Below are positions 14,235 through 26,300 of a stretch of 64,000 bases of DNA, in pieces. Origin of the DNA: Clostridia bacterium. GTDB taxonomy: Bacteria > Bacillota > Clostridia > Oscillospirales > CAG-272. Under the pieces are notes generated by a model. The model saw nothing but the letters and a program-made list of their open reading frames with translations. It did not search any database and had not been told where the DNA came from. Location of the stretch: assembly GCA_017412045.1 (NCBI GenBank), contig JAFQOX010000017.1:6183-70182 (forward strand). Reading direction: 5' to 3'. The stretch's first letter is position 1, and every line of letters starts with the position of its first letter. Both the position numbers and the translations under genes were made by a program.

Positions 14235-15242
14235 TTATTCCCACTCAATCGTGCCGGTAGGCTTGGGAGTGAGATCGTAGAGAACGCGGTTGATGCCTGC
14301 GACCTCGGTGACGATTCTGTTGGTGATTTTGTGAAGAACGGCGTAGGGAATTTCTTCGATGGTTGCGGTCATTGCGTCTTTGGTATTGACGGCGCGGATG
14401 ATGGCGGGCCAGCCTTCGTAGCGGCTTTCATCCTTTACGCCGACGCTCTTGATGTCGGGAATGGCGATGAAATACTGCCATACGGTTTTAGCAAGACCGG
14501 AATTGTCGAATTCTTCGCGGAGGATCGCGTCTGCTTCGCGGAGTGCGTGGAGTCTGTCGCGAGTGATGGCGCCGAGGCAACGAACACCGAGACCGGGGCC
14601 GGGGAAGGGTTGACGGTCAACCATGGAAGAGGGGAGTCCGAGGGTTCTGCCGACAACACGGACTTCGTCTTTGAAAAGGAACTTCAAGGGCTCAACGAGC
14701 TGGAATTTTTCAGCGAGGTCGTCGGGAAGACCGCCGACGTTATGATGGGATTTGACTGCTTTTTTGCCTTCGCCCTGCTTGACGCTTTCCAGAATGTCGG
14801 GATAGATGGTACCCTGCGCGAGGAAGGACACGCCGTCGAGCTTGCGCGCTTCGTCAGCGAATACGTTGATGAATTCTTCGCCGATGATTTTACGCTTGCG
14901 TTCGGGATCCGCAACGTTTGCGAGAAGGTTCAGAAAACGGTCTGTAGCATCGATATAGATGAGATTGGCATCGAGCTGATTGCGGAAAAGTTCGATCACC
15001 GCTTCGCTCTCGTTTTTGCGCATAAGTCCGTGGTTGACGTGTACGCAAATGAGCTGTTTGCCGATTGCCTTCAGAAGAAGTGCGGCAACTACGGAAGAGT
15101 CAACACCGCCAGAGAGTGCGAGCAGGACCTTTTTGTCGCCGACCTGGGCGCGGACCTCTGCGATCTTTTCTGCGATGAAAGCCTCTGCGAGTTCAGGGGT
15201 GGAAATACGAGTCATGGAATCCGGTCTGAGATTGGTATTCAT
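14235..15242 (-). CDS. guaA: GMP synthase ATP-pyrophosphatase (synthetase) domain protein, with no glutamine amidotransferase domain
   Basis: KKVLLALSGGVDSSVVAALL (PP-loop), HHNVGGLP, PFPGPGLGVRCLG and the canonical C-terminus KPTGTIEWE. It is 335 aa, starting where the synthetase domain of fused GuaA begins. Confidence 0.85.
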   Translation of the reverse strand: MNTNLRPDSMTRISTPELAEAFIAEKIAEVRAQVGDKKVLLALSGGVDSSVVAALLLKAIGKQLICVHVNHGLMRKNESEAVIELFRNQLDANLIYIDATDRFLNLLANVADPERKRKIIGEEFINVFADEARKLDGVSFLAQGTIYPDILESVKQGEGKKAVKSHHNVGGLPDDLAEKFQLVEPLKFLFKDEVRVVGRTLGLPSSMVDRQPFPGPGLGVRCLGAITRDRLHALREADAILREEFDNSGLAKTVWQYFIAIPDIKSVGVKDESRYEGWPAIIRAVNTKDAMTATIEEIPYAVLHKITNRIVTEVAGINRVLYDLTPKPTGTIEWE

Positions 15243-15581
15243 ATAGCATTCCTCCTAAAAATAAAAATCAATCATCTTTTTCGTTTTGCGGATTTTTGAG
15301 AAAATCAAACGTGATTCTTCGAAATTGTTGAGTCCAAAAGCGATTTAATGAAAATATTATACAGCGAAAATGTGTGATTTGTCAATAGGATTTTCAAAAA
15401 AACAGAAAAAAATCTCTAAAAATAAACATGAAATATTCATCAAAAAACAATGAATCCTTTTCACGCGTTTTGTTGACAAGTAAAAAGGAAAATGCTATAA
15501 TAATAAAGTATCGAATTGTAATATCATCGGTAAAATATAATATGATCGAAACGGATATAGGACAGAAAGGAACAATGGATT

Positions 15582-17321
15582 ATGACGAAACGAATTCCCA
15601 AAATATCGCTCCGTGCGATGTCGCTTGCCAAGCAATGCGGAATCAGCAGTAAAGATTTGTATTTAATTACGCCGACAGGCGCTGACGGCAGAATCACCGA
15701 AGAGGACGTTTTGCTCGCAGCCAAGGCGAAAATGGATATGGCTTCCGTGGCAGCGCAAAAGCCCGCAGCGGAAAAAGCACCCGTTGCGGAAGAAGTACCT
15801 GTAACGGAAAAAGCGCCCGTTGCAGAAAAAGCACCCGTTGCGGAAGAAGTACCTGTAACGGAAAAAGCGCCCGTTGCAGAAAAAGCACCCGTTGCGGAAG
15901 AAGCGCCCGTGGCGAAAGAAGCGCCCGTGGCAGAAAAAGCACCCGTAGCGGGAGAAGCGCCCGTTGCGGAAGAAGCACCCGTTGCAGAAAAAGCGCCCGT
16001 TGCGGAAGAAGCGCCCGTTGCGGAAGAAGCGCCCGTTGCAGAAAACGCACCCGTAACGGAAGAAGCGCCCGTAGCGGAAGAAGCGTCCGCAGCAGAAGAA
16101 GCGCCCGTAACGGAAGAAGCACCCGTTGCGGAAGAAGTACCCGTTGCAGAAGAAGCGCCCGTAACGGAAGAAGCACCCGTTGCGGAAGAAGTACCCGTTG
16201 CAGAAGAAGCGCCCGTTGCAGAAGAAGCGCCCGTTGCGGAAGAAGTGCCCGTAACGAAAGAAGCGCCCGTTGCGGAAGAAGCGCCCGTTACGGAAGAAGC
16301 ACCCGTAACGGAAGAAGCACCCGTTGCGGAAGAAGTACCCGTTGCAGAAGAAGCACCCGTTGCAGAAGAAGCGCCCGTAGCGGAAGAAGCACCCGTAGCG
16401 GAAGAAGCACCTGTGGCAGAAGAAACTCCCGTAGCGGAAGAAGCCCCCGTGACGGAAGAAGCACCTGTGACAGAAGAAACTCCCGTGGAAGCGCCGGACA
16501 GCGTTGCCATTGAAAAAATCGAGACGGAAAAACAGGAACAAACCGCAATCATTGCCAAACCCGTGATGAACGAAGAAACGATCGGCGATCAGAGCGCAGA
16601 AGGAGAGATCCCGAAGCATGAGACGGTTCATTCCTTTGATTCGGAGGCATACCTTCATACGGACGTCATCATTCCGAGAACGGAAACCGCGCCGGACGGA
16701 ACGCCGATGACGGTCAGTATGTCCTTCGATGCTTCTTCTATCGTGAGATTACATACGATGATCAAGGAGAACGGCGAAGCGATGGGAATTCCTCACGTTA
16801 CGATCAACGATATGATTCTCTTTGCGGCGGCAAAGCTTCTGAAGAAAAACAAAGCGCTGAACGCGCATTTTCTCGGAGACAAGATCCGTTATTTCGACGG
16901 CGTGCATCTCGGATTCGCCGTAGATACCGATCACGGTATGGAGCTTCCCGTGGTATTCGATGCGGATAAGCTTTCCCTCTACGCGCTCACGCAGGTTACG
17001 GATGCTTTGATCAGAGGCGCAAGAGCGGGCAAAATCGCTTCCGGCAAAACGAAGCCCTGCGCTTCCTTCACGGTATCCAATCTCGGCACGCTCGGCGTGG
17101 AATATTTCATGCCGACGCTGAAGGCACCGCAGACCGGAATCCTCGGCGTTTGCGCGTTGCAGAAGAGAGTGAAGGAGGTTGGCGGAAAGGACGTATTCTA
17201 CTCCTGCATCCCGCTCTCCCTGACCTTCGATCCCCGCGCGCTGGATACCACGAGCGCCGCGAAATTCCTGCGCGATCTTTGCGTATCGCTGGAAAATTTT
17301 GAATTGTTGCTGTTGAAATAA
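15582..17321 (+). CDS. 2-oxoacid dehydrogenase E2 (dihydrolipoamide acyltransferase)-like protein with no lipoyl domain, a long Pro/Ala/Glu repeat linker and a degenerate catalytic motif
   Basis: N-terminal E3/E1-binding-like segment ([29 protein letters not shown]), ~240 aa of [AV]PV[AT]E[EK] repeats, and a C-terminal catalytic-domain pattern ([39 protein letters not shown]). Confidence 0.75.
15760..16490 (+). repeat. About 40 tandem copies of an 18-bp coding repeat (GAAGAAGCNCCCGTTGCG-like, hexapeptide APVAEE) with 54-bp higher-order units
   Basis: Read directly. For example, the 54-mer gaagaagtacctgtaacggaaaaagcgcccgttgcagaaaaagcacccgttgcg occurs twice back to back near 15788-15895. Confidence 0.9.
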
Positions 17322-19415: not shown

Positions 19416-20669
19416 ATGAAAAAAATAAGTTTGACTTTCATCAGCTTTCTGCTTCTGTGCGCGGTCCTGCTTCATGCTTCGGGTTGCTCGGCGAATATCC
19501 ATGCCGCCGATCTGATGGACGGCGTTACGCCTCGCAAATGGGAAACCGGAACGGATCCCGGTGAGAAAAGCGCCGAGGTGACCGATTTTGCGATCCGTCT
19601 TTTCAGGGCGGTAAACGAGGACGGAAAGAATACGTTGATTTCACCTTTGTCGGTTCTTTGCGCATTGGCGATGACGGCAAACGGTGCGCAGGGAGAAACG
19701 AGAGCGCAGATGGAATCCGTTCTCGGTATGCGTACGGAGGATCTGAATGCGTATCTTTGCGCGTATGTGAACGCCTTGCCGCAGGGGGATCGCTACAAGC
19801 TTCATCTCGCAAACTCCATTTGGTTTTCCGATGAAGACGGTTTTGCCGTCAACCGCGATTTTTTGCAGACGAACGCGGATTACTACGGAGCAGATATTTA
19901 TCAAGCACCGTTTGATAACAGAACGCTCCGCGACGTCAATCGCTGGGTAAGGAACGAAACCGACGGCATGATCCCCGAGGTTCTCGATCGGATCCCTTCC
20001 GAGGCGGTGATGTATCTCGTGAACGCGCTCGCGTTTGAAGCGGAATGGAAAAAGATCTATGAGAAAAAGCAAATCAAGGACGGCACGTTCACAAAAGAGG
20101 ACGGAACGGAGCTGACAGCCAAGATGATGTACGCCACCGAGCACGTCAAATATCTCAAAGATAAAAACGCGACGGGCTTTTTCAAATATTATAACGGGGA
20201 AAAATACGCTTTTGTTGCGCTTCTTCCCGACGAGGGCGTTTCGCTGTCCGATTACGTGAACAGCCTTGACGGGGCGGCTCTGCACACGCTTTTGTCGGAA
20301 GCGGAAACGGCTTCGGTCAGCACGGCGATTCCGAAATTTGAATCCGAATACAGCGCGGAGCTTTCCGAAATTCTGCAATCCATGGGAATGACGCTCGCCT
20401 TTGACGAAAATAACGCGGATTTTTCGGGGATCGGCACCGTAGCGAGCGGGAATCTCTTTATGAGCAGGGTTTTGCACAAGACTTGTATCCGTGTCGATGA
20501 AAAGGGCACGAAGGCGGGCGCCGTAACGGTGATCGAAATGAGCAAAAATTCTGCCGATGCGGGAGGAATCAAGCAGGTTTACCTGGACAGACCGTTCGTC
20601 TATATGCTCGTTGACTGCGAAAACAATATTCCCTTCTTCATCGGTACGGTGACGGACGTGAATGCATAA
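19416..20669 (+). CDS. Serpin-family protease inhibitor, predicted lipoprotein
   Basis: Signal peptide plus lipobox LLHASGC. Serpin blocks NTLISPLSVLCALAMTANGAQGET, VNALAFEAEWK, and hinge/RCL DEKGTKAGAVTVIEMSKNSADAGG followed by DRPFVYML. Confidence 0.85.
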   Translation: MKKISLTFISFLLLCAVLLHASGCSANIHAADLMDGVTPRKWETGTDPGEKSAEVTDFAIRLFRAVNEDGKNTLISPLSVLCALAMTANGAQGETRAQMESVLGMRTEDLNAYLCAYVNALPQGDRYKLHLANSIWFSDEDGFAVNRDFLQTNADYYGADIYQAPFDNRTLRDVNRWVRNETDGMIPEVLDRIPSEAVMYLVNALAFEAEWKKIYEKKQIKDGTFTKEDGTELTAKMMYATEHVKYLKDKNATGFFKYYNGEKYAFVALLPDEGVSLSDYVNSLDGAALHTLLSEAETASVSTAIPKFESEYSAELSEILQSMGMTLAFDENNADFSGIGTVASGNLFMSRVLHKTCIRVDEKGTKAGAVTVIEMSKNSADAGGIKQVYLDRPFVYMLVDCENNIPFFIGTVTDVNA

Positions 20670-20991: not shown

Positions 20992-21291
20992 ATGGATAAG
21001 CAATGCTGTTCTCACAAAACGAAAGCCCGTACGGACGACGAATATAAAAAGCTGATTCACCGTCTGAACCGTATCGAGGGACAGATCCGCGGAATCCGCG
21101 GTATGGTGGAAAACGATGCGTACTGTACGGATATTCTGATCCAGGTCAGCGCGGTCAACGCCGCTCTGAACGCGTTCAATAAGGAATTGTTGGCAAATCA
21201 TATCCGCACCTGCGTGACGGACGATATCCGGAACGGGAAGGACGAGGTCGTGGACGAATTGGTCAACACCCTGCAAAAATTGATGAAATGA
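20992..21291 (+). CDS. csoR: CsoR/RcnR-family metal-sensing transcriptional repressor
   Basis: LIHRLNRIEGQIRGIRGMVENDAYCTDILIQVSAVNAALNAF is the classic DUF156 pattern with the Cys/His ligand set. It lies directly upstream of copA. Confidence 0.9.
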   Translation: MDKQCCSHKTKARTDDEYKKLIHRLNRIEGQIRGIRGMVENDAYCTDILIQVSAVNAALNAFNKELLANHIRTCVTDDIRNGKDEVVDELVNTLQKLMK

Positions 21292-21308: not shown

Positions 21309-23807
21309 ATGGAACGGTATAACGTGACGGGTATGAGCTGCGCGGCTTGCAGCGCCCGTGTGGAAAAGGCGGTCTCTGCCGTGGAAGGCGTGAAAAGCTG
21401 CTCCGTCAATCTGCTGACGAACTCCATGGCGGTGGAAGGGACGGCGGCGAAGGAAGCCATTGTCGCGGCGGTGGAAGCCGCAGGCTACGGCGCATCGCCA
21501 AAAACGGAATCCGCAGAACAAGCGCCCGCGTCGAAAAGAGAGGAATTGCGCGACGTGCAAACACCTCTGATGAAAAAGCGATTGATTGCGTCGCTCGGCT
21601 TTCTGGCGCTTCTGATGTATATTTCGATGGGACACGTGATGTGGGGCTTTCCCCTGCCCGCGGTTCTCGCGGAAAATCCGCTTGCCATCGGACTTCTGGA
21701 GCTTTTGCTCTGCGCGATCGTGATGGTGATCAATCAGAAATTCTTTATCAACGGCACAAAGGGCGTTTTGCACGGCGCGCCGAATATGGATACGCTCGTG
21801 GCGTTGGGCTCGGGCGCATCGTTCGTATACAGCGTGTACGTCGTTTTTGCGATGACGGCGGCGCAGATGGACGGAGATCCTTCGGCTGTCATGCACGGCT
21901 TGCATGATCTGTATTTTGAATCGGCGGCAATGATCCTGACGCTGATCACCGTCGGCAAAATGCTGGAGGCGAGAGCCAAGGGCAAAACGACGGATGCACT
22001 CGCAGGTCTGATGGCGCTTGCGCCCAAGACGGCAACGGTCTTGCGCGACGGAGAAGAAACGGTCGTTGCGATCGAAGCCGTAAAAAAGGGTGATATTTTC
22101 ATCGTTCGCCCCGGCGAGCATATTCCCGTGGACGGCATCGTCGTCGAGGGCGGAAGCGCCGTGAACGAATCGGCGCTGACGGGAGAAAGCATTCCCGTCG
22201 ATAAGGCGGTCGGTGATTCCGTTTCTTCGGGAACGACCAACGAATCGGGATTTCTCAAATGCGAGGCGACAAGAGTCGGTGAAGATACCGCGCTGGCACA
22301 GATCGTCCGCATGGTCAGCGACGCGGCGGCAACGAAAGCGCCGATCGCAAAGATCGCAGATAAGGTTTCGGGTGTTTTCGTTCCCGTCGTCATCTCCATT
22401 GCGGCGATCGCCTTCGCGATTTGGATGATCGCGGGAGGATCCGTCGGTTTTGCGCTTTCGATGGGCATTTCCGTGCTCGTTATCAGCTGTCCCTGCGCGC
22501 TCGGTCTGGCAACGCCCGTGGCGATCATGGTCGGAACGGGAAAGGGCGCGAAAAACGGCATTCTTTTCAAAACGGCGACGGCGCTGGAGGAAACGGGCAA
22601 GGTGAAAACCGTCGTTCTCGATAAAACGGGAACGGTGACGAGCGGCGCGCCCAAGGTCGTTTCCGTGCTTCCCGCGTCGGGCGTTTCGGAGGAGACGCTT
22701 CTTTCTCTTGCCTATACGCTGGAGAAAAACAGCGAGCACCCGCTGGCAAGAGCGATCCGCGAACGCGCGGAGGATCTCGGCATGAAGGCAGGGGCGGTTT
22801 CGGATTTTACCGTATTTCCGGGAAACGGTCTTTCCGCAACATACGGAAGCGATACGCTTTTCGGCGGAAATCTCGCCTTCATTGCATCCCGAGCGTCTGT
22901 GACGGAGGATATGCAAGCGCAGGCAAGCGCGCTTGCCGATGAAGGAAAAACGCCGCTTTTCTTTGCAAAAAACGGCAGTATGCTCGGCATCGTCGCCGTT
23001 GCGGACGTGATCCGTGAGGACAGCCCCGCGGCGATCCGCGAACTGCGAGAGATGGGCATCCGCGTCGTTATGCTGACGGGGGACAACGAGCGCACTGCCG
23101 CCGCGATCGCAAGAGAGGTCGGCGCGGACGAGGTCATCGCGGGCGTACTCCCCGACGGCAAGGAAGAGGTGATCCGCAAGCTTTGCGAGCAGGGCAAGGT
23201 CGCCATGGTCGGCGACGGTATCAACGATGCCCCCGCTCTGACGCGCGCGGATATCGGCATCGCCATCGGCGCGGGCACGGATATCGCCATTGATGCGGCA
23301 GACGTCGTGCTGATGAACAGCAGACTTTCCGACGTTCCCGCCGCGATCCGTCTCAGCAGAGCGACGCTGAGAAATATTCATCAGAATCTTTTCTGGGCGT
23401 TCTTCTATAACGCGGTCGGCATTCCGCTGGCGGCGGGCGCGTGGTATCCGCTGTGGCAAATCAAGCTCAGCCCCATGTTCGGCGCGGCGGCGATGAGTCT
23501 TTCCAGCTTCTGTGTGGTCAGCAACGCGCTGCGGCTCAATCTCACGAAGATCCGCAGTACGAAACATAAAAACAAACAACAAACGGAGGAAACCAAAATG
23601 GAAAAAACGATGAAAATCAAAGGTATGATGTGCAAGCATTGCGAAGCGAGAGTTAAAAACTGTCTCGAAGCGTTGCCCGAAGTCAGCGAAGCCGTCGTCA
23701 GCCACAAAAAGGGCACGGCAAAGCTCACGCTCACCGCGGAAATCGCAAACGAAACGCTCAAAAAGACCGTTGAGGATCAGGGCTATCCCGTCATTGACAT
23801 CAAATAA
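21309..23807 (+). CDS. copA: Copper-translocating P1B-type ATPase with an N-terminal and an additional C-terminal heavy-metal-associated domain
   Basis: N-terminal GMSCAACSARVE, TGES, CPCALGLATP, DKTGTVT, GDGINDAP. The last 69 aa form a second HMA domain (KIKGMMCKHCEARV). Confidence 0.92.
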   Translation: MERYNVTGMSCAACSARVEKAVSAVEGVKSCSVNLLTNSMAVEGTAAKEAIVAAVEAAGYGASPKTESAEQAPASKREELRDVQTPLMKKRLIASLGFLALLMYISMGHVMWGFPLPAVLAENPLAIGLLELLLCAIVMVINQKFFINGTKGVLHGAPNMDTLVALGSGASFVYSVYVVFAMTAAQMDGDPSAVMHGLHDLYFESAAMILTLITVGKMLEARAKGKTTDALAGLMALAPKTATVLRDGEETVVAIEAVKKGDIFIVRPGEHIPVDGIVVEGGSAVNESALTGESIPVDKAVGDSVSSGTTNESGFLKCEATRVGEDTALAQIVRMVSDAAATKAPIAKIADKVSGVFVPVVISIAAIAFAIWMIAGGSVGFALSMGISVLVISCPCALGLATPVAIMVGTGKGAKNGILFKTATALEETGKVKTVVLDKTGTVTSGAPKVVSVLPASGVSEETLLSLAYTLEKNSEHPLARAIRERAEDLGMKAGAVSDFTVFPGNGLSATYGSDTLFGGNLAFIASRASVTEDMQAQASALADEGKTPLFFAKNGSMLGIVAVADVIREDSPAAIRELREMGIRVVMLTGDNERTAAAIAREVGADEVIAGVLPDGKEEVIRKLCEQGKVAMVGDGINDAPALTRADIGIAIGAGTDIAIDAADVVLMNSRLSDVPAAIRLSRATLRNIHQNLFWAFFYNAVGIPLAAGAWYPLWQIKLSPMFGAAAMSLSSFCVVSNALRLNLTKIRSTKHKNKQQTEETKMEKTMKIKGMMCKHCEARVKNCLEALPEVSEAVVSHKKGTAKLTLTAEIANETLKKTVEDQGYPVIDIK

Positions 23808-23815
23808 GCCGAAAA

Positions 23816-23845
23816 AGCCGATGCAGAAATTGCATCGGCTTTTTG
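23816..23845 (+). terminator. Rho-independent terminator after copA
   Basis: AGCCGATGCA-gaaat-TGCATCGGCT followed by TTTT. Confidence 0.8.
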
Positions 23846-23920
23846 CTTACTTTTTAGGACTTGTTAAAAAAATGACCGTTTGGGGGTGTGTTGTCATTTT
23901 TCAAACGAGCCCTAATCATG

Positions 23921-24136
23921 TTACCAATATTTATCTTTATTGTCCGTTAAGCCTAACAGATAGTCCGTTGAAACGTCGTAGTATCGAGCCAAAGTGATAA
24001 TATGACGGCACGGAATCTCTTGTATGTCATTTTCATATTTGCTAATCTGTTGTTGCGTTGTATAAAGTAATTCTGCGATTTCCAATTGGCTTGCCTTGCC
24101 TGTTCTTGCTTCTTTCAATCGTGCACCAAGTTTCAC
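23921..24136 (-). CDS. XRE-family HTH transcriptional regulator (71 aa), low-GC gene
   Basis: SQLEIAELLYTTQQQISKYENDIQEIPCRHIITLARYYDVSTDYLLG. GTG start. Visibly AT-richer than its neighbours. Confidence 0.85.
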   Translation of the reverse strand: MKLGARLKEARTGKASQLEIAELLYTTQQQISKYENDIQEIPCRHIITLARYYDVSTDYLLGLTDNKDKYW

Positions 24137-24196
24137 AAATCCTCACCACACTCTCTATATAATCTCTATAAAAAATTATATACCTAATAATTGTTC

Positions 24197-24240
24197 TTGA
24201 CAAACGCCTAAAAAGGTGTATAATATGTAATATACACCTT
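24197..24240 (+). promoter_or_regulatory. Promoter (TTGACA-16 nt-TATAAT) overlapped by the inverted repeat AAGGTGTATA...TATACACCTT
   Basis: Read directly from the divergent intergenic region between the XRE gene and the zinc-ribbon gene. A third half-site, AAGGTGT, follows at ~24243. Confidence 0.6.
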
Positions 24241-24279
24241 ATAAGGTGTTATCAACATTTAAGAAAGAAGGTATTTTCT

Positions 24280-24786
24280 ATGTTTTGTCCTCACTGTATG
24301 AAAAAAATTCCTCAAACCGCCGACACTTGTCCATTCTGCGGTCAGCCTGCTCATGTCCCGATTGCAGGTATGGCGACTCTCAGAATCAGCTGTCGTCCGC
24401 ATCTTCCTGTTTGGATGATGATTATGTACCCCATCAATTATTTTGCCGGATATAATGTATATATTTCCGTAGACGATCAGAATTACATTTTGAAGAGCAA
24501 AAAGTTGCAACTGGACGTGCCCGTTTCCGTCGGCACGCACAAGATCCGCATTTCCTCGATGAGCAAAAAGTCTGCCAAGGCTATGAAATTTGCCGGAGCT
24601 GCCATGATGTTCGCCGGACAGGTTGCGGGCGACACCTCGACCGTATACGCGGGATCTGCTCTGGAGGATTGGGGCAGGGCGTTCTCCGGTGACGGCATTT
24701 CCGTTACCTTTGCTCCCAATGAATTGTATCCCATCGCTGTCAAACTTGGCTGGAACGGTGCGCTGGCAGAGGATAAGCAGAAATGA
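24280..24786 (+). CDS. Zinc-ribbon domain protein of unknown function (168 aa)
   Basis: N-terminal CPHC-x11-CPFC zinc ribbon, followed by a beta-rich region (YISVDDQNYILKSKKLQLDVPVSVGTHKIRIS). Confidence 0.6.
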   Translation: MFCPHCMKKIPQTADTCPFCGQPAHVPIAGMATLRISCRPHLPVWMMIMYPINYFAGYNVYISVDDQNYILKSKKLQLDVPVSVGTHKIRISSMSKKSAKAMKFAGAAMMFAGQVAGDTSTVYAGSALEDWGRAFSGDGISVTFAPNELYPIAVKLGWNGALAEDKQK

Positions 24787-25451
24787 GCTTGAAAGGCGAT
24801 TTGGAGCTCTGTCTGGAGTATGCGGAATCATTGGAAGATAAGCAGGCGCAGCGAGTACAGGCGCAGAATGGTATCATTTTTATACAAAATGAAAGCGAAC
24901 GCTTGAAAAATAAGCTGAAATTCTGCATGACACTGACGGTTCTTGCTGTTATCGGTATCGTGATTCTGGCGCTTGCCATAGTTGCCTGTCGCGACATCCG
25001 AATTGAGCTTTCTATCTTTACGGTCTCTCTGGGGGTCGTGGGCGGCGTTGCTCTTTTCAATTATCTCAAGACGAAGAAGGAATCGGACGAGCTGGAAACC
25101 CGAAAGCCCGTCCTGCTTCAGCAGTATACCGCAGAAGCCGAAACCTGCGAGCGGGATATGGTTGAGCTGCTGAGAGAAATCTATCAAGAGGGCTTGTTTG
25201 ACATCGTCCCGGCAGACTATTTTTCTGTAGCGGCAATTGAATTTTGTCTGAACCAGGTGCGCAAAAAAGTGGCGACTACAGCTCCCGAAGCATTCCGACA
25301 GTTGGATGCCGAGATCAGACGTCTGGAGCATATGGAGCATCTGGAGCAGATGAACAATGCGCAAATGGAAAAATTGGAGGATATTGAGCGGGCGATCAAC
25401 CTCAATACCATTATTACTGCTATGAAAGAGGAAGAGAAGAACAGACAGTGA
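24783..25451 (+). CDS. Membrane protein with two TM helices flanked by coiled-coil-like segments (222 aa), unknown function
   Basis: ATGA overlap with the upstream gene. TMs are MTLTVLAVIGIVILALAIVAC and LSIFTVSLGVVGGVALFNYL. The C-terminus is charged and heptad-like (RRLEHMEHLEQMNNAQMEKLEDIERA). Confidence 0.55.
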   Translation: MSLKGDLELCLEYAESLEDKQAQRVQAQNGIIFIQNESERLKNKLKFCMTLTVLAVIGIVILALAIVACRDIRIELSIFTVSLGVVGGVALFNYLKTKKESDELETRKPVLLQQYTAEAETCERDMVELLREIYQEGLFDIVPADYFSVAAIEFCLNQVRKKVATTAPEAFRQLDAEIRRLEHMEHLEQMNNAQMEKLEDIERAINLNTIITAMKEEEKNRQ

Positions 25452-25469
25452 ATTCGTAGCATGACAAAA

Positions 25470-25508
25470 AACCACACAACAGACTTAAATGTCGTTGTGT
25501 GGTTTTTG
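25470..25508 (+). terminator. Rho-independent terminator
   Basis: AACCACACAAC...GTTGTGTGGTT followed by TTTGTG. Confidence 0.7.
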
Positions 25509-25535
25509 TGCATCCGATGGTAGAATACAGAAAAC

Positions 25536-26300
25536 TCAATTTTTCGGAAACCTCTTTCCGCAGAACATACAGAACAGCGTTTCGGGCGGCGAAAATTCTC
25601 CGCAGGCCTCGCATTTTTTCATGCTCTTGATCCGATTATCGTGAAATTCGCGGATGAGGGTAAGCACGCCCTCGTCCAGAACGCCGTCGATGACGGCGGC
25701 TTCGATGACGGTATCGGAAACGCGGATGTACTTCATCAGAACGGAGAGAAAATGCCAGTCGATCTCTCCGCGGATGATCTTATCAAAGATAGAAAGCTTC
25801 GCGGAGAAATTCATGAAGGGCAGGGTTTTTTCCAGAAGCGCCGTATCGATGCTTTGGAAATCCGAGGATTCGAGCAGCTCCCAGAAGCCTCTGTCGCTCA
25901 TATAGGAAAAGAGCGATGCGAGATTGGAAATGTCAATGCCCTGTGAGGCAAAGCCCTGAATGGCGCGGTCAAGCGCGCTGGGCTTCAGCAGGGGCGCGAT
26001 ATTCTCCAGCTCGTGAATGTTGCAGCGGCAGGTCCCGAGGTCCTTGCCGAGCGCGGCGTTTTTCAGAAGCTCCTGCTCGCCGTCGGTCGGGGCGCCCGCG
26101 CCGATCAGCTCGTCGATGGAAATTTTGAAGATCTCGGCAATTTTGACGAGAATGGAAATATCGGGGAAGCTGTCTCCCTTTTCGTAACGGGAAACCGCCT
26201 GACGCGTGAGATTCAGCTTGTCGGCAAGCTCGGACTGCGTCATATCGGCATTGCGGCGAAGCGTGGAAAGATTCGCACAGAAAAGATCGGCATCAAACAT
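25536..26300 (-). CDS. XRE-family HTH regulator with a C-terminal zinc ribbon (254 aa)
   Basis: MTQSELADKLNLTRQAVSRYEKGDSFPDISILVKIAEIFKISIDELIG. The C-terminus reads CEACGEFSPPETLFCMFCG. Confidence 0.8.
   Translation of the reverse strand: MFDADLFCANLSTLRRNADMTQSELADKLNLTRQAVSRYEKGDSFPDISILVKIAEIFKISIDELIGAGAPTDGEQELLKNAALGKDLGTCRCNIHELENIAPLLKPSALDRAIQGFASQGIDISNLASLFSYMSDRGFWELLESSDFQSIDTALLEKTLPFMNFSAKLSIFDKIIRGEIDWHFLSVLMKYIRVSDTVIEAAVIDGVLDEGVLTLIREFHDNRIKSMKKCEACGEFSPPETLFCMFCGKRFPKN

Follow-up and report, generated by a model that had tools for sequence, protein, structure and literature searches.

A portable three-gene cassette with a putative XRE-family repressor and a two-transmembrane protein in Clostridia, a candidate conflict module

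Background

Small XRE-type repressors divergent from a silenced operon in acquired DNA are known from Escherichia coli, where RacR-YdaS/YdaT and DicA-DicB lie inside the cryptic prophages Rac and Qin, respectively, and loss of the repressor is harmful through expression of the operon. RacR represses the adjacent ydaS-ydaT operon, the expression of which is toxic (PMC5700377, PMC5700373), and YdaS is itself a Cro-like helix-turn-helix (HTH) protein (critique in PMC5917428). The three-gene cassette analysed here has a similar layout. It occupies an islet of 1730 nt in a 64,000-nt stretch of the genome of a Clostridia bacterium (GTDB lineage Bacteria; Bacillota; Clostridia; Oscillospirales; CAG-272; GenBank assembly GCA_017412045.1, contig JAFQOX010000017.1, positions 6,183 to 70,182), called the window below. 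The cassette consists of a gene for an XRE-family putative repressor (XRE) and, divergent from it, two overlapping genes for a soluble zinc-ribbon protein (A) and for a membrane protein with two transmembrane (TM) segments (B). By analogy, a divergent XRE guarding a harmful operon, as in the RacR type, appears to be the nearest known logic, although for the cassette we infer the harm. The guarded genes are unrelated, DicB being a soluble division inhibitor, and the cassette, unlike the E. coli pairs, has no surrounding prophage.

Like the cI/OR/PRM/PR region of lambda, the cassette has back-to-back promoters and palindromic operators that recur at a distance of 30 bp on one face of the helix, one of them adjoining the -35 box of the promoter from which the repressor gene is transcribed. 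It has, however, one regulator with no Cro-like counterpart and two operators instead of three; its operator binding and autoregulation are predicted from sequence; and its XRE, unlike cI, is a bare 71-aa HTH protein with no cleavable C-terminal domain, so that induction by the RecA route would not be expected. RexA-RexB and other two-component abortive systems likewise combine a soluble partner with an inner-membrane protein in an accessory locus with a phage-type repressor, and abortive infection of the RexA-RexB type is the functional model favoured here by analogy. There is no sequence or fold similarity to RexA-RexB, RexB has four TM helices, and the rex genes share a transcript with cI and are active in the lysogen, whereas A and B appear to be repressed.

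Other systems share features of single components. The SLATT effectors resemble B in their two-TM hairpin between helices, small size and accessory context, but no SMODS, reverse-transcriptase or other SLATT partner is present in the cassette. Members of the ClyA family (XaxA, MakA, AhlC, Nhe), like B, consist of long helices that run antiparallel and are tipped by a hydrophobic helical hairpin; these toxins are secreted and attack from outside, whereas B has no signal peptide, a predicted topology with both ends inside, and half their size. The omega-epsilon-zeta system has a regulator separate from its toxin-antitoxin pair. The cassette is similar in having three genes with a dedicated repressor apart from a two-protein pair, but its proteins are of unrelated fold, omega is part of a common transcript and not divergent, and zeta is a soluble kinase. 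The regulatory logic of the cassette is already of a known kind; its cargo, A and B, and the superfamily of B-like proteins are undescribed.

Absence of the cassette from the closest relatives

The islet contains three open reading frames (ORFs) between the end of copA (stop codon 23805-23807) and a convergent gene for a 254-aa HTH protein; the coordinates of all features are collected in Table 1. Its limits were set by blastn against relatives that lack the cassette, because nucleotide homology to these (84-89%) stops at 23808, at the copA stop codon, and resumes at 25539, at the stop codon of the HTH gene; both terminators fall inside. An earlier note on this DNA, made from the sequence alone, had described an AT-rich islet of about 1.6 kb at this place. 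The islet is real, with its limits now refined, and the layout proposed in that note was recovered throughout: the flanking terminators, the XRE gene, the 168-aa CPHC...CPFC protein, the 222-aa two-TM protein and the ATGA overlap between the last two.

In two relatives with an HTH neighbour protein 92% identical to that of the window (L020 and L021), the gene order is dnaE, HTH gene, copA, with no cassette, and the gap between copA and the HTH gene in L020 measures 74 nt with one bidirectional terminator, as against 1730 nt in the window. The cassette is likewise missing beside the HTH gene in L024 (HTH neighbour 88% identical), and in L022 and L023 (83% identical) plsY occupies the gap. Three loci that encode the very same HTH protein (L017-L019) are 99.9-100% identical to the window in nucleotide sequence and are of the same genome or species; the 122-aa "truncated A" called in L018 reflects different gene prediction, its DNA being 100% identical to the window. 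The synteny comparison recommended in the earlier note thus showed no cassette beside the HTH gene in L020, L021 and L024.

For the 254-aa HTH neighbour, dozens of clusters form a continuous series of relatives at 79-97% identity, whereas the nearest non-identical relatives of A and B in a collection of 5.8 billion clusters are only 76% and 65% identical, respectively. The G+C content (GC), computed in windows, is 0.365-0.42 over 23800-24600, compared with 0.55-0.60 in the flanks. The dip, which had been noticed before, is uneven and strongest in XRE, and the codon composition of the cassette, judged by GC at third codon positions (GC3, Table 1), is atypical for the host. Because the site is empty in the closest relatives, homologues of A and B are distant where those of the neighbour are close, and GC3 is atypical, the data point to gain of the cassette from a lower-GC donor; loss in all of the relatives is the less likely alternative. 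The horizontally acquired look of the islet, which the earlier note had read from its composition, now rests on the empty site, the differing contexts described below and the atypical codon usage. That note had named membership in the conserved core genome with normal composition as what would speak against its view; the empty site and GC3 contradict both.

Conservation of the cassette as a unit

XRE (71 aa, minus strand) and the overlapping A and B genes occur together in nearly every contig examined (in L011 the XRE ORF is simply uncalled), in at least nine other housekeeping contexts. The neighbours are an acetyltransferase and unknown genes in L001, ArsP and GDPD in L004, DUF1292 and FakA/MutY in L005, UxuA and LRR proteins in L009, and an ABC transporter and MscS in L011; in L014-L016 they are housekeeping-looking genes that we tentatively take, from reading the sequence, to be a phosphate-transporter/PhoU pair, a glycerate-kinase-like gene and a DNA-ligase-like gene. 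Among species-representative genomes, the cassette was present in only four of 185,579. Homologues of A and B are all unnamed or "hypothetical" and come from metagenomes and from metagenome-assembled genomes of Clostridia and Oscillospiraceae, from ruminant and other animal guts.

Similarity at the DNA level between cassettes starts at the stop codon of XRE and ends near that of B. The AT-rich inverted repeat that lies just outside this region in the window is not kept in other cassettes, and could be either a weak XRE terminator or junction debris. The terminator downstream of copA ends the copA transcript on the plus strand and is able to end that of XRE on the minus strand, and in L004 and L009, B is followed by a terminator (AAAAACCACAC...GTGTGGTTTTT) similar to that of the A-B operon in the window. 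In the contigs examined, the cassette is not adjoined by an integrase, transposase or phage gene. The islet itself holds no recombinase or transposase gene, shares no terminal repeats with other cassettes, shows no repeat at its ends that would suggest a target-site duplication, and has no tRNA gene nearby; classification as an insertion sequence, transposon or integrative element was accordingly rejected, for want of a recombinase, terminal repeats and target-site duplication.

All loci, the divergent L047 among them, retain the order XRE/A/B, the A-B overlap and the lengths of the genes. In L047, P0128, a B protein about 27% identical to that of the window, belongs to a complete module of XRE, a 168-aa protein and a 230-aa protein with the same operators. 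A and B co-evolve as a pair. Mean amino acid identity across seven or eight cassettes is 0.91 for XRE (pairwise 83-96%), 0.70 for A and 0.58 for B, while conserved residues are encoded by the same codon in similar proportions in XRE, A and B (0.58, 0.52 and 0.53, respectively). Since amino acid identity is unequal at similar synonymous divergence, the three genes share one history, with XRE under much stronger purifying selection. The GC of the cassette is always below that of its flanks but partly follows the host, reaching 0.53-0.58 in the 62%-GC host of L005, and some lineages have therefore carried the cassette for long.

Control region

The region between XRE and A is 143 nt long. It holds two promoters that lie back to back with overlapping -35 hexamers, one for XRE and one for the A-B operon, the latter with a perfect score in the promoter scan. 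The earlier note had described an inverted repeat overlapping the -10 box of a TTGACA/TATAAT promoter as a repressor-operator layout. The repeat (AAGGTGTATA/TATACACCTT) and the promoter are present, and shuffled sequences give an expected number of 0.00 for the extended pattern; the arrangement is better described, however, as two 16-bp palindromes, the putative operators O1 and O2, which form the pattern ACRCCT-N4-AGGTGT, lie 30 bp (about three helical turns) apart, and have an expected chance number of 0.03 in the window in a pattern search.

An alignment of nine independent cassettes showed conserved blocks at the -35 box, O1, the -10 box, most of O2, the ribosome-binding site and the XRE promoter, with TTGACAAAC and AAAAGRTGTATAAT essentially invariant. 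O1 is kept in all cassettes, L047 included, and O2 is kept with minor changes. The control region of L047 follows the same design, with TTGAAA, ACGCCTGATAAGGTGT, TATAAT and, in the place of O2, ATGCCTAATCAGGTGT. As a feature of the sequence, the repressor-operator layout therefore stands, both operators and both promoters being conserved in all cassettes examined. A dimer of XRE on each operator would be expected to occlude the A-B promoter and to leave the XRE promoter usable. An Rfam scan of the islet gave nothing near thresholds.

Properties of XRE, A and B

By its sequence, XRE can be assigned to the XRE/Cro-C1 family of transcriptional regulators. Residues 7-60 of 71 match HTH_3 (E 8e-9; 35.8 bits against a Pfam cut-off of 23), a match to HTH_19 spans residues 4-64, and there is no further domain. 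The protein is 43-65% identical to annotated phage repressors, with phrog_8 as best PHROGs match (E 5e-17), and in PADLOC it gave generic HTH matches only (RmrA, capH).

Protein A starts with a CPHC-x10-CPFC ribbon, which matches Pfam Zn_Ribbon_1 just under the cut-off (E 7e-5), and has no TM segment (Kyte-Doolittle maximum 0.91, 19-residue window). In an AlphaFold2 model made with 61 sequences (mean predicted local distance difference test score, pLDDT, 82.0), the ribbon is followed by eight beta-strands, which we read as a beta-sandwich interrupted by a glycine-rich helical hairpin at residues 96-136. G106, G113, G125 and G132, at i and i+7 on each helix of the hairpin, are invariant or nearly so, as are the ribbon cysteines and the strands. 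The 65 homologous clusters are nearly all 161-186 aa long, mostly about 168 aa, apart from a few fragments. Foldseek searches of the Protein Data Bank (PDB) with A returned nothing significant, only fibronectin-like fragments. A single marginal match in BFVD (Foldseek), to a phage zinc-ribbon/DUF4352 protein (E 9.8e-4, TM-score 0.39), was not taken as homology.

Protein B, for which 56 close homologous clusters of 215-234 aa were found, has hydrophobic segments at about residues 47-69 and 74-95 (Kyte-Doolittle values up to 3.08, 19-residue window). Its AlphaFold2 model (mean pLDDT 87.7, 52-sequence alignment) has helices at 3-69, 74-135, 149-160 and 167-221, of which the first two form a long hairpin with the two-TM segment at its tip and the last is a C-terminal coiled-coil helix. 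The TM pair is bordered on its outer sides by basic residues (RLKNKLK, KTKKES) and joined by a short loop, and therefore, by the positive-inside rule, B is predicted to have an N-in/C-in topology with all conserved parts in the cytoplasm. The TM hairpin varies in sequence and in loop length, while the soluble parts are conserved, namely the N-terminal helix (MSLQSDFELCLEYAE..., CLEYAE), the stretch IVPxDYFSVAAIEFCLxQVRKKLAxTxxEAFRQLDAEI and the C-terminal helix. Two cysteines, C10 (about 24810-24812, in CLEYAE) and C155 (about 25245-25247, in AIEFCL), are fully or almost fully conserved in the close family and occur together in most intermediate relatives, and both would lie in the membrane-distal head of the predicted hairpin; more speculatively, they may form a metal or redox site. 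Three tandem 9-nt units of the TCTGGAGCATATG type at 25322-25352 (plus strand) encode LEHMEHLEQM in the C-terminal coiled coil.

Neither A nor B has a significant family in Pfam, NCBIfam, PADLOC or PHROGs, where only the sub-cut-off zinc ribbon of A and noise were found; the earlier note's failure to match the cassette to a named system is borne out in these four collections, the PADLOC check that it proposed returned zero families for the two proteins (PADLOC-DB v2), and no housekeeping family matched either of them in Pfam or NCBIfam. Profile searches of PDB sequences with A and B gave artefacts only (BRIL-fusion, TM), and a Foldseek comparison of B with the PDB gave nothing significant but generic coiled coils.

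The wider B-like family

A profile search with B in a library of 1.84 billion representatives at 50% identity found 112 proteins at E <= 0.001; the metagenome scan for B-like proteins was made with a tighter subgroup of the broad alignment. The distant relatives are 205-306 aa long (one 411 aa), 12-27% identical to B and built on the same plan, and they have in common a cytoplasmic motif, [IVL]PxDYxxxxA...N.RADTLKEAxNLYE. In 91 of them, searches of Pfam, NCBIfam, PADLOC and PHROGs found no recurrent family; there were compositional matches to DUF2207_C, MAG1210, LeoBC/LmuB coiled coils and phrog_2546.

Zinc ribbons recur in this family. Eleven of the 91 proteins carry a fused N-terminal one, and in L037, L038, L040 and L041 a zinc-ribbon ORF lies immediately 3' of the B-like gene. 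The distant B protein P0125 is directly preceded by a 146-aa protein that is homologous to the beta-rich domain of A (hhalign probability 95.8%, E 8e-9) and has no zinc ribbon. A divergent XRE gene stands upstream of the B-like gene in L036 and L046. B belongs to an undescribed superfamily recurrently found beside or fused to zinc ribbons, with divergent XRE genes nearby. Many distant B-like genes stand alone with no A-like partner.

In L046 (3589-7627 of IMGVR_UViG_3300011689_000023), the B-like gene and divergent XRE are accompanied by a Fic/DOC-family protein, a resolvase and a 363-aa SHOCT protein, and further ORFs, as read from the sequence, are presumably a Phd/YefM-like putative antitoxin and an SbcD-like protein. 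An AAA_21 (AbiEii-type) ATPase lies near the B-like gene of L043. Defence-gene company was seen only in these two distant relatives (Phd-Doc with a resolvase, and the AAA_21 ATPase), in a small sample, and most other distant loci have no conflict or mobile company.

Viral sequences and pore-forming toxins

The 17-base operator pattern has seven matches in IMG/VR, roughly the estimated chance number, and only one phage contig among them has the full promoter design. This contig (IMGVR_UViG_3300035325_000364, 65.9 kb) contains two promoters of the cassette design, with TTGACA, ACACCTATATAGGTG and TATAAT (L048:480-533 and L054:3019-3073), and encodes a 137-aa XRE protein, 33% identical to that of the cassette, followed by a serine recombinase. 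Promoters with operators of this half-site type in the spacer may be a regulatory style shared by phages and hosts among these bacteria.

Comparison of B with ClyA-type toxins stayed below significance both in Foldseek (MakA E 0.05, AhlC E 0.1, range 0.05-0.24, TM-score <= 0.33) and in the PDB profile search (MakA E 0.06, Nhe L1 E 0.08), and the NCBIfam XaxA model matched four of 91 B relatives; membership in the ClyA family was rejected, there being no significant sequence or fold match. A SLATT assignment was also rejected (NF033634, 11.9 bits against a cut-off of 41, E 0.16), and SLATT is absent from the recurrent matches of the 91 relatives. So was a holin or lysis cassette: no cassette locus has an endolysin or phage gene, and B, at 222 aa, has large cytoplasmic domains and no consistent PHROG holin match. 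A classical type II toxin-antitoxin system of the HigBA, HipBA or MqsRA type was set aside, XRE being a bare HTH protein on the opposite strand with its own promoter, and A and B matching no toxin family.

Table 1. Position and composition of the islet, its features and adjacent genes in the window
Feature	Position	Strand	GC	GC3	Remarks
Whole islet	23809..25538				absent from closest relatives; blastn of L020, L021 and L024 against the window
Bidirectional intrinsic terminator	23812..23844				perfect 14-bp stem with A-run and T-run; scored on both strands
AT-rich imperfect inverted repeat	23854..23915				just 3' of XRE stop codon; 23-nt arms, 83% complementary
XRE-family putative repressor (XRE)	23921..24136	-	0.38	0.36	71 aa, GTG start, HTH domain only
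XRE promoter	24175..24203	-			TTGTCA 24203-24198, 17-nt spacer, TATAAT 24180-24175; 11/12 in promoter scan
A-B operon promoter	24197..24224	+			TTGACA 24197-24202, 16-nt spacer, TATAAT 24219-24224; 12/12 in promoter scan
Putative operator O1	24204..24219				ACGCCTAAAAAGGTGT; in A-B promoter spacer, abuts XRE -35 box; direct repeat with O2
Putative operator O2	24234..24249				ACACCTTATAAGGTGT; perfect palindrome just 3' of -10 box
Protein A, soluble	24280..24786	+	0.50	0.56	168 aa; N-terminal C4 zinc ribbon, then beta-rich domain
Protein B, two-TM	24783..25451	+	0.48	0.57	222 aa; ATG overlaps TGA of A as ATGA
Intrinsic terminator of A-B operon	25467..25507	+			perfect 14-bp stem, then T-run
copA	21309..23807	+	0.58	0.69	P-type ATPase
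254-aa HTH gene	25536..26300	-	0.54	0.70	convergent to A-B
dnaE			0.58	0.745	

Neighbouring genes

The 254-aa neighbour has an XRE HTH at its N-terminus (HTH_3 E 7.5e-15) and a CxxC...CxxC zinc ribbon at its C-terminus. Its gene adjoins dnaE in every relative examined and belongs to core-genome DNA outside the islet. CopA has a second HMA domain at its C-terminus (about 23599-23807), preceded by a lysine/glutamine-rich linker, which looks like a fused CopZ-like domain. A CsoR-type repressor gene upstream of copA in the window (20992-21291) is lacking in L020 and L021, and L022 and L023 also carry a separate copZ-like gene and another small XRE gene; genes are readily gained and lost around copA and the HTH gene. 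A serpin of 417 aa (Pfam Serpin) with an apparent N-terminal signal peptide or lipoprotein leader is encoded at 19416-20669 (plus strand) and adjoins copA in relatives. Elsewhere in the window, GC falls sharply to 0.297 at 15200-15600, the genome being at about 0.55.

Discussion

The cassette is most plausibly, if tentatively, read as a repressor-guarded conflict module acting at the membrane, a candidate for abortive-infection-type defence or addiction, because its distribution is sporadic, its acquisition recent and its repressor highly constrained, and because it encodes a membrane protein with no enzymatic domain, features that together typify such modules. The proposed sequence of events, from repression by XRE through interaction of A with B to harm on expression and its trigger, is built from sequence features. 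XRE, presumably as a dimer, would bind O1 in the promoter spacer and O2 after the -10 box and so shut a near-perfect sigma-70-type promoter, while its own promoter would stay usable and may be favoured as long as that of A and B is blocked. If repression failed, A and B would be produced in a burst, their synthesis linked through translational coupling. B would insert in the cytoplasmic membrane with both ends inside, its helical head and coiled coil facing the cytoplasm, and soluble A would dock on this head at the inner membrane face; physical proximity of the two is suggested by the zinc-ribbon fusions in B-like proteins. The complex would then act on the membrane or on something recruited there, and would harm or arrest the cell when derepressed, in phage infection (abortive) or after loss of the repressor (addiction). 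That failure of the repressor would be costly is suggested because XRE is far more constrained than A and B at similar synonymous divergence. The conflict or mobile genes near the B-like genes of L046 and L043, and the weak resemblance of B to ClyA-type toxin components that recurred in three kinds of search, would also fit a conflict role.

Our confidence in the conflict reading is limited because we infer the harm or defence and because the neighbourhoods are no defence islands, and several results weigh against it. The contexts of the cassette, about ten, are ordinary metabolic or housekeeping ones, none of them recognisable as a defence island or prophage. Searches of 50,697 phage genomes (tblastn) and of 2.9 million IMG/VR contigs (pattern and tblastn searches, both alignments) gave no relative of A or B, and a tblastn search of a plasmid collection gave none of B. 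Neither protein has a PADLOC model match or a known toxin fold, and the faint resemblance of B to alpha-pore toxins could reflect a generic composition of coiled coil and hydrophobic hairpin. The TM helices of B carry no conserved polar residues and are more anchor-like than suited to a defined channel. XRE is excluded as a classical protein antitoxin by its divergent transcription and its lack of any domain beyond the HTH, and no trigger or sensor is identifiable.

Some of these points suit an accessory module with no role in conflict, in which A and B form a membrane complex for envelope or membrane stress, organisation or signalling that is derepressed by an environmental cue and spreads among gut Clostridia through a niche benefit. 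Such a module would be at home among ordinary metabolic genes and outside defence islands; an anchor-like TM region with a conserved cytoplasmic head, clear purifying selection on A and B with constant lengths, a large B-like family in many unremarkable contexts, and Vipp1/PspA-type hairpins among the weak Foldseek matches (E 0.15-0.24) are all in its favour. We nevertheless regard it as on the unlikely side, although a serious contender, since there is no match to Psp, Lia or another stress family, XRE lacks a ligand-binding domain with which a cue could be sensed, presence in one species but not in its well-sampled close relatives would be unusual for a generally useful function, and a promoter of perfect score under a highly constrained repressor looks like containment of harm. 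The view that these genes are simply an operon of the lineage's core genome, without any particular history, for which the housekeeping neighbours copA and dnaE and the lack of a mobility gene in the islet might speak, is excluded by the empty site in the closest relatives, the rarity of the cassette among species representatives, the atypical GC3 and a location that differs in every genome.

Two further explanations keep the idea of harm. A strict three-component toxin-antitoxin system, with B as membrane toxin, A as the coupled antitoxin made first and XRE as a separate regulator like omega in omega-epsilon-zeta, would account for the usual antitoxin-toxin order, with the soluble protein upstream of the effector and an ATGA overlap, and for an A-B pairing kept over large divergence; yet A and B match no toxin-antitoxin family, the regulator is divergent on a separate transcript, the many solitary B-like genes are hard to reconcile with an unconditional toxin, and A is more conserved than B and well folded, whereas a typical antitoxin is labile and partly disordered. 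This we consider very improbable. It is also improbable, if somewhat easier to entertain, that the cassette is the relic of a temperate-phage immunity or early region, in which a cI-like repressor guards harmful or phage-excluding early genes and the minimal unit is kept since loss of the repressor is lethal. The divergent overlapping promoters with shared operators, the similarity of XRE to phage repressors, the IMG/VR contig with its two promoters (TTGACA, ACACCT-N4-AGGTG, TATAAT) beside an XRE and recombinase lysogeny module, and the precedent of RacR with the adjacent toxic ydaS-ydaT (PMC5700377, PMC5700373) would all fit. The absence of A and B from the phage and viral collections does not, nor does a unit content that is identical in every genome, unlike that of decaying prophage remnants; no other phage gene flanks any cassette, the phage XRE is only distantly similar, and the operator pattern in IMG/VR is roughly at chance.

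A bolder form of the conflict reading, which we hold to be doubtful, would make the cassette the founding example of a new family of repressor-locked abortive or addiction systems, in which B (motif PxDY...A...RADTLKEAxNLYE) and A disrupt or depolarise the cell's own membrane from inside under a lambda-like single-repressor switch. If it were true, the wider family of B-like proteins associated with zinc ribbons in Firmicutes would amount to a large class of membrane effectors that has so far gone unrecognised.

Conclusions

Should A and B prove to be a physiological membrane module, the value of the finding would be more modest, namely the annotation of a family of unknown function. If they are a membrane effector under a phage-type switch, the cassette would represent a new and very compact conflict system of three genes in 1.7 kb with no enzyme domain, and would give a first functional handle on a superfamily for which neither Pfam nor NCBIfam has a model. 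In addition, the cassette offers a clear example from nature of gene gain at a terminator-to-terminator junction without a recombinase, and is thereby relevant to the spread of small accessory modules in uncultured gut Clostridia.

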